From sequence record PV904160.1: a DNA stretch of 39,516 nucleotides; one strand, 5' to 3'. Shown here in pieces: positions 6,612 through 6,965 of this stretch. Position 1 is the first letter of the stretch. Each line of letters begins with the position of its first letter. A model generated the notes under the pieces. The model had not been told where the DNA came from. It was given only the letters and a program-made list of their open reading frames with translations, and made no database searches. A program made the translations under genes and the position numbers. The stretch comes from Klebsiella phage SAKp10309.

Positions 6612-6937
6612 TGAGCAAGTCATATGGGATTAATCTGGTTCATGCGCTGGACGCAGACCTTAACCTTCTTTCAGCACTGGCTACAGGCTACCGTCACGGG
6701 ACCTCAAGTCACACCATTCGTCAACAGCAGGAGCGAGACCGTGTACTTCAGGCAAGACTCCGGGCCGAGGGCCATAAGTCCGAGCTTATGTGTCTGGCGT
6801 ATGGTGGACGACCTCGCACTGACGATGGTAAACTTCTGGTCTCAGGCTGGAGGGCGATAGACCAACGGTCAACCATCAAGCACACGACCAAAGGTGACTT
6901 CAGTCATCTCCACGCTAACCCTCTGATATGCAAGTAG
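6611..6937 (+). CDS. Hypothetical early protein, 108 aa, no recognised family
   Basis: ATG overlaps the upstream stop (TAATG). RBS gggag 9 nt upstream. Occupies a slot that is empty in T7. Confidence 0.5.
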   Translation: MSKSYGINLVHALDADLNLLSALATGYRHGTSSHTIRQQQERDRVLQARLRAEGHKSELMCLAYGGRPRTDDGKLLVSGWRAIDQRSTIKHTTKGDFSHLHANPLICK

Positions 6938-6942
6938 TTTGG

Positions 6943-6965
6943 ACTAAACTATCACTAAAGGACTC
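6943..6965 (+). promoter_or_regulatory. Phage-promoter-like element upstream of the RNAP gene (A at -2, as in T3-type promoters). Part of a 31-nt near-duplicate of the phiOR region.
   Basis: 6932..6962 (aagtagtttggactAaactatcactaAagga) matches 3142..3172 at 29 of 31 positions. +1 G at 6960. Confidence 0.5.

Follow-up and report, generated by a model that had tools for sequence, protein, structure and literature searches.

The DNA analysed here (the window, 39,516 nucleotides of Klebsiella phage SAKp10309, PV904160.1) is a circularly permuted K1F-like phage genome of the genus Kayfunavirus. A megablast search with positions 6500..9800 matched 574 phage records, the best of which were Kayfunavirus genomes (K1F-like, Studiervirinae) at 95% identity. 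The gene for the single-subunit phage RNA polymerase (RNAP), gene 1, truly starts at the ATG at 7041 and not at the GTG at 6996 given in the mechanical list of open reading frames (ORFs), and its start context, AAGGACTTTAAGTATGAGCGTCA, is common to K1F, EcoDS1 and PE3-1. It is preceded by a gp0.38-like early ORF, the 3' end of which, with the stop codon TAG at 6935..6937, enters a stretch of sequence that recurs upstream of the phiOR promoter. Between the two genes lies a phage-type promoter sequence on the plus strand, the same strand as the genes, with its GG at 6960-6961; from there it is 22 nt back to the gp0.38-like stop codon and 81 nt forward to the ATG of gene 1 (Table 1).

Table 1. 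Features of the gene 1 promoter region and of the sites compared with it, in window positions
Feature	Position	Strand	Basis and remarks
Gene 19	end at 3058		
phiOR promoter, comparison paralogue	3153..3175	+	+1 = G3170; exact consensus; homologous to EcoDS1 phiOR 38500..38522
Genome left end	~3752		EcoDS1 positions 1-71 match 3752..3822 at 100%
gp0.38-like early ORF, 108 aa	6611..6937	+	ORF list, translation; EcoDS1, K1F and CR8 have gene 0.38 at this place
Upstream context (-45..-18), paralogous to 3125..3152 upstream of phiOR	6915..6942	+	22/28 identical; overlaps the last codons and TAG of the gp0.38-like ORF
23-nt phage RNA polymerase promoter (-17..+6), ACTAAACTATCACTAAAGGACTC	6943..6965	+	predicted start G6960; A at -2 vs consensus
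5' arm of 11-nt perfect inverted repeat, TATCACTAAAG	6950..6960	+	repeat search; promoter -10..+1, including the -2 A
Leader of predicted promoter transcript, 81 nt	6960..7040	+	ends with ribosome-binding site AAGGA (7028..7032) before the ATG
3' arm of inverted repeat, CTTTAGTGATA	7004..7014	+	in the gene 1 leader
Gene 1, single-subunit RNA polymerase, 893 aa	7041..9722	+	95% nucleotide identity to annotated RNA polymerase genes

Two observations concern the public records of these genomes. RefSeq names these T7-type polymerases 'N4-like RNA polymerase'. In addition, the region upstream of gene 1 is matched at 83-100% identity by OR786095 (Staphylococcus phage MBBL139), PQ520054 (Enterococcus phage IME_EF3) and PV615262 (Acinetobacter phage vB_Aba_01KA); the first two extend the match over the RNAP gene, at 93%. 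Probably the hosts given in these three records are wrong, or the samples were contaminated.

We scored the site before gene 1 with a 23-column matrix built from the ten other phage promoters of the window (+1 at 3170, 10486, 12209, 13174, 15298, 21381, 24202, 25199, 29893 and 37169), the candidate itself being left out. It reached 27.5 bits, within the leave-one-out range of the ten others (23.4-35.6 bits) and far above the best non-promoter site in the window (10.3 bits). Matches to the consensus 19-mer with up to three mismatches numbered 8 in the window, compared with 0.01 expected in shuffled sequence, and the allele seen here recurs in 32 independent GenBank records and in 6 IMG/VR contigs; a chance resemblance or an assembly artefact can therefore be dismissed, and the original prediction was right to see more than coincidence in the match. 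Positions -12..-3 are identical to the consensus, so that the specificity bases (-12..-5) are intact, but the TATA element at -4..-1 reads TAAA, the A at -2 being the sole case among the 11 promoters of the window. An A at -14 and a GGAC start are also present in other early-region promoters of the window. The promoter may be a weak one, judging by its initial GGACTC, which is far from the strong GGGAGA. By sequence, the site clearly falls in the K1F specificity class of Studiervirinae single-subunit RNAP promoters, and it is very probable that the stretch just before gene 1 serves the phage's own polymerase as a genuine promoter. A sigma-70 promoter at the same place, as the PE3-1 record has it, was rejected, since we found no sigma-70-like site near 6700..7100. 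For the same 23-mer, a phage promoter according to the EcoDS1 record, the PE3-1 record (NC_024379, 2874..2896) gives the label 'host RNAP promoter', probably in error.

A promoter in this position is an ordinary feature of K1F-like phages and is already annotated in relatives. Using the RNAP protein to retrieve IMG/VR loci, we examined 79 of the 80 returned (one came without the gene start). Where the RNAP is at least 79% identical, 21 of 21 loci have a promoter core, 82-109 nt ahead of the start codon of gene 1; where it is ~60% identical, T7 and a Klebsiella-phage group included, 0 of 58 have a core within 200 nt of gene 1. The orthologue in EcoDS1 (NC_011042) is annotated as the 'phi' promoter at 2244..2266 and, as in the window, directly follows gene 0.38, ~75-81 nt short of the start codon of gene 1; its counterparts in K1F and PE3-1 carry no phage-promoter annotation. 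All three phages carry ACTTAACTATCACTATAGGACTCAAGG at this place and share with the window the specificity bases AACTATCAC, the flanks (CACGCTAACCC...GCAAG upstream, GGACTCAAGGTC downstream) and the upstream paralogy with phiOR. The window differs from them in having A for T at -2 and -14 and in a diverged leader (GTCGAAAGACTCTAAGTCAGG...) that contains an 11-nt complement of the promoter core. For Kayfunavirus Sparklingdew, too, a published list of promoter repeats includes one at the 3' end of the gene that comes before the RNAP gene (PMC13298934).

The specificity bases at the gene 1 site track the promoter set of each phage, reading AACTATCAC in K1F, AACCCTCAC in GW1 and GAAGGTACAC in CR8. 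Cronobacter phage GW1 has 12 promoters, each of them AAACCCTCACTATAGG or close to this, and the gene 1 site, TTAAACCCTCACTATAGGAC, is like the 11 others, with flanks that are still homologous to those of the window. In Citrobacter phage CR8 (Caroctavirus, NC_023548), a 'predicted promoter' at 3356..3378 lies between gene 0.38 and gene 1, as in the window, and fits CR8's own consensus, the site (AAGGAAGGTACACTATAGG) being identical to the next CR8 promoter; unlike the window, CR8 has the specificity sequence GAAGGTACACTATAGG, a GGGG start and an unrelated leader. The replacements at the gene 1 site, CCC in GW1 and GGTACAC in CR8, thus match the other promoters of the respective phage. We regard this tracking as the strongest argument that the comparisons offer for function, as a relic would not be expected to follow three specificities.

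The original prediction had started from the likeness of this site to phiOR, put at 29 of 31 positions between 6932..6962 and 3142..3172. Recounting gave 28 of 31, the three mismatches being A in place of T at -14 (6946) and again at -2 (6958), and A in place of G at +3 (6962); the substitution at -2, the placing of +1 at G6960 and the shared upstream 14-mer (AAGTAGTTTGGACT, 6932..6945 = 3142..3155, with no other exact copy in the window) all proved accurate. The likeness extends well beyond this segment, covering -45..+2 at 39 of 47 positions (6915..6961 vs 3125..3171) and ending abruptly at +3, and blastn aligns the phiOR region of EcoDS1 to the same 6915..6961 of the window at 83% over 47 nt. 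For the stretch -50..-18, the gene 1/phiOR pair agrees at 25 of 33 positions in the window, whereas the median of all other promoter pairs is 9/33. Because the EcoDS1 copies also share 20 of 33 positions here, the paralogy of the two promoters is, on these alignments, an old one. The duplication of a promoter cassette that had been proposed therefore holds as shared ancestry with the phiOR region, upstream context included, but not as an event that is recent or peculiar to this genome, given that all 21 related loci have a promoter there, as do every Kayfunavirus examined and CR8. The exactness of the 14-mer reflects small lineage-specific changes: the gene 1 context of the -2A clade reads AAGTAG(T/G)TTGGACT, and the phiOR context of the window (3142..3147) reads AAGTAG where K1F, EcoDS1 and phi1_146013 have AAGGAG, which makes it identical to the gene 1 copy. 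This shared AAGTAG hints at possible occasional gene conversion between the two promoter copies.

The A at -2 marks a minority allele, with a 40-mer of the -2A type in 32 GenBank phage records and the TATA type in 163. The hosts named in the -2A records are Salmonella, Enterobacter, Escherichia, Shigella, Klebsiella and Cronobacter. Among 16 compared members of the -2A clade, -12..+5 is invariant; the whole leader is nearly invariant too, so conservation of the core within this clade does not single out promoter function. When the T7 promoter carried the T>A change at -2, its RNA/DNA ratios were 161 and 138, the wild type giving 142-188 (Komura et al. 2018; PMC5937735, file S2); with T7 RNAP the change keeps ~80-95% activity. 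A second natural -2A promoter is found in GW1, before the primase/helicase gene (21503..21525, TTAAACACTCACTAAAGGGATG, with A at -2 and -10). Because the T7 variant is near wild type and GW1 has this other -2A promoter, abolition of activity by the -2 A seems unlikely, and the A residues at -2 and -14 probably weaken the promoter only mildly. In Enterobacter phage EcL30g (PQ227829, 12539..12739), the K1F-type upstream context with T at -14 is joined to a -2A core and a window-type leader, an arrangement that implies a recombination crossover inside the promoter.

The promoter core coincides with one arm of a perfect inverted repeat, the other arm of which lies in the gene 1 leader. A repeat of 11 nt was reached in 15 of 3000 dinucleotide shuffles. 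The hairpin predicted for 6950..7014 (~65 nt) has a minimum free energy of -19.2 kcal/mol with a z of -2.64, the z being 0.03 in a longer context; the K1F (TATA) allele folds analogously via UCACU/AGUGA, with a z of -3.04. Three differences from the K1F allele (-2 U>A, one A fewer in the 3' arm, and GUGAAA>GUGAUA) all improve the helix and jointly produce the perfect 11-bp repeat; the -2 A may therefore be due to RNA pairing no less than to tuning of the promoter. Closing-stem pairs are invariant among relatives and the sole variant weakens pairing, which is too little independent variation for an analysis of covariation; an Rfam search of 6500..7300 with E up to 1 returned no family. T7-type R1 sites are irregular hairpins of ~50-70 nt just before gene 1. 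The hairpin is probably the R1 RNase III processing site of the early transcript, for which we put it forward as a candidate.

The perfection of this helix raises the question of whether the promoter is crippled or inactive in the present allele, its sequence being kept chiefly for its part in the R1 hairpin of the host-made early transcript, where it supplies the 5' arm, and the -2 T>A change selected for RNA pairing and not for transcription. Such a reading would account for the rarity of the perfect repeat among shuffles, for the single -2A promoter in the window and for the constant linkage of -2A to the window-type leader, which holds even in EcL30g with its K1F-like upstream half. It agrees poorly with the near-wild-type activity of the T7 variant, with the intact -12..-5 bases and with a score inside the range of the other promoters; moreover, the two roles are compatible, the TATA allele forming its hairpin as well. 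We therefore consider loss of promoter function in this allele distinctly unlikely, and treat the site as a probably active promoter whose core doubles as a hairpin arm.

With an active promoter, gene 1 RNA would come in two kinds with distinct 5' structures. The 6950..7014 hairpin can form only in RNA begun further upstream, whereas RNA from G6960 would be without the 5' arm, and its predicted fold pairs the 5' end with the nucleotides that separate the ribosome-binding site from the start codon. The original prediction that a promoter here would re-transcribe both R1 and gene 1 late in infection is thus reasonable for gene 1, provided that the site fires, but not for R1, since -10..+1 form the 5' arm of the predicted hairpin and transcripts from G6960 would lack it. 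The overlap might go further and constitute a designed switch, in which host-made RNA with the full hairpin is processed by RNase III, polymerase-made RNA starts inside the hairpin and escapes, and the two gene 1 mRNAs are translated or degraded differently, tuning the feedback; the -2 A would then have co-evolved, trading a little promoter strength for a perfect helix. We hold this elaboration to be doubtful.

Two further sequence arrangements were seen along the way. The core of phi13 (29878..29896) is flanked by the inverted repeat arms GGGCCTATAG (29861..29870) and CTATAGGCCC (29897..29906), making it a second promoter set within a potential hairpin of read-through RNA. The gene 1 leader from 6959 to 7037 is made of repeated A(A/G)GACTnnAAG words (at 6959, 6973, 6987, 6999 and 7028), and similar words fill the leaders of K1F and CR8. 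Viewed by eye, the repeated GACT words of the leader do not give strong T7 primase sites.

From the left end to 6943, the window has no site above 10.3 bits, and hence no phage promoter; the EcoDS1 record likewise annotates none in this interval and lists no phiOL. Coming from the left, the gene 1 promoter is thus the first phage promoter encountered, and the genus is without a T7-style phiOL. Entry of the T7 genome is driven by transcription, and phiOL and phiOR are linked to secondary origins and to concatemer processing. The gene 1 promoter could accordingly be read as a phiOL-like entry or replication promoter, the first site from which the phage RNAP could take over the pulling-in of the genome or prime replication, with autoregulation as a by-product. 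Its leftmost position fits this, as do the phiOL at 405 in T7 and the 47-nt block that the gene 1 promoter shares with phiOR. On the other hand, the Kayfunavirus leader shows no significant similarity to what follows phiOL in T7 (54/1000 and 153/1000 shuffles, and no better than other promoters), phiOL and phiOR of T7 are without common upstream context (13/38), and GW1 has lost the phiOR-like context yet keeps the promoter. Nor does the site have the left-end location of phiOL, being ~3.2 kb in from that end and past the host promoters. We think it unlikely that entry or replication is the primary role. The notion of a relocated phiOL, with a leader homologous to the region downstream of T7 phiOL, is unsupported by the same shuffles and upstream counts.

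An independent host-RNAP route to the first polymerase molecules is present as well. Sigma-70-like sites lie at 3686 and 4432 of the window, the segment 4286..4462 is homologous to EcoDS1 472..639, which holds two of the three annotated EcoDS1 host promoters, and the intervening ORFs are all on the same strand. We found no terminator-like site in 3100..7200, and host RNAP should for this reason read into gene 1 as it does in T7; for the same reason, any initiation at G6960 must transcribe gene 1, which would give positive feedback. Autoregulation, which had been suggested from the promoter match, is in this sense a fair inference if the site fires. T7 resembles the window in the reading of early genes into gene 1 by host RNAP, predicted here, in the hairpin just before gene 1, a processing site in T7 and a candidate for one here, and in having a phage promoter, phiOL, upstream of gene 1 in the same orientation; it differs in that only the E. 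coli promoter C (3113) adjoins gene 1, with phiOL (405) 2.8 kb further left. The premise that T7 has no phage promoter before gene 1 is consequently correct for the immediate upstream region only, phiOL at nt 405 being upstream of the whole early region.

On this evidence we consider it likely that the phage's own single-subunit RNAP uses 6943..6965 as a class-II-type promoter, the leftmost of the genome and going back to an ancestor shared by Kayfunavirus and Caroctavirus, that this promoter gives positive feedback, that the -2 A is a mild change, and that the core doubles as a hairpin arm. In the sequence of events that we propose, host RNA polymerase would start at the early sigma-70 promoters (~4286..4462) and read through into gene 1, and the first molecules of phage polymerase would next start from G6960, transcribing gene 1 together with all that follows it. 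The result would be positive feedback on polymerase synthesis, with gene 1 transcription kept up after the shut-off of host transcription, and host-initiated and phage-initiated gene 1 mRNAs would differ at their 5' ends, the hairpin forming only in read-through RNA.

This layout has parallels elsewhere. Dubendorff and Studier reportedly engineered, in 1991, a T7 'autogene' in which gene 1 under a T7 promoter drives self-amplifying expression; that construct is an artificial plasmid needing tight repression, whereas the arrangement here is natural and sits in a lytic genome, where runaway expression is harmless. The window has the components of a self-transcribed RNAP gene of the autogene or LUZ100 phi1 type, namely a cognate promoter, an 81-nt leader and no terminator-like site in 3100..7200. 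The phage-specific promoter phi1 of Pseudomonas phage LUZ100 likewise stands immediately before the RNAP gene, the host promoters being located farther up; its start site has been mapped by experiment, and the authors suggested a loop of positive feedback (PMC10134795). Unlike the window phage, LUZ100 is distant and possibly temperate, and control by a MarR-like repressor was proposed for it, nothing of which kind was seen here. A literature search for transcript mapping in Kayfunavirus or K1F found nothing relevant.

Public records already annotate the arrangement described here, and the same idea is in print for LUZ100, so that the window adds the description of an allele and a structural detail rather than a new kind of element; the placing of promoter positions -10..+1 within the arm of the read-through hairpin, perfected by the -2 A, is a minor new point. 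If the promoter fires, K1F-like phages would make their RNAP through a self-amplifying loop, as opposed to host transcription alone in T7, and this would affect the speed of their escape from the host polymerase as well as the behaviour of engineered K1F-type polymerase and promoter parts.
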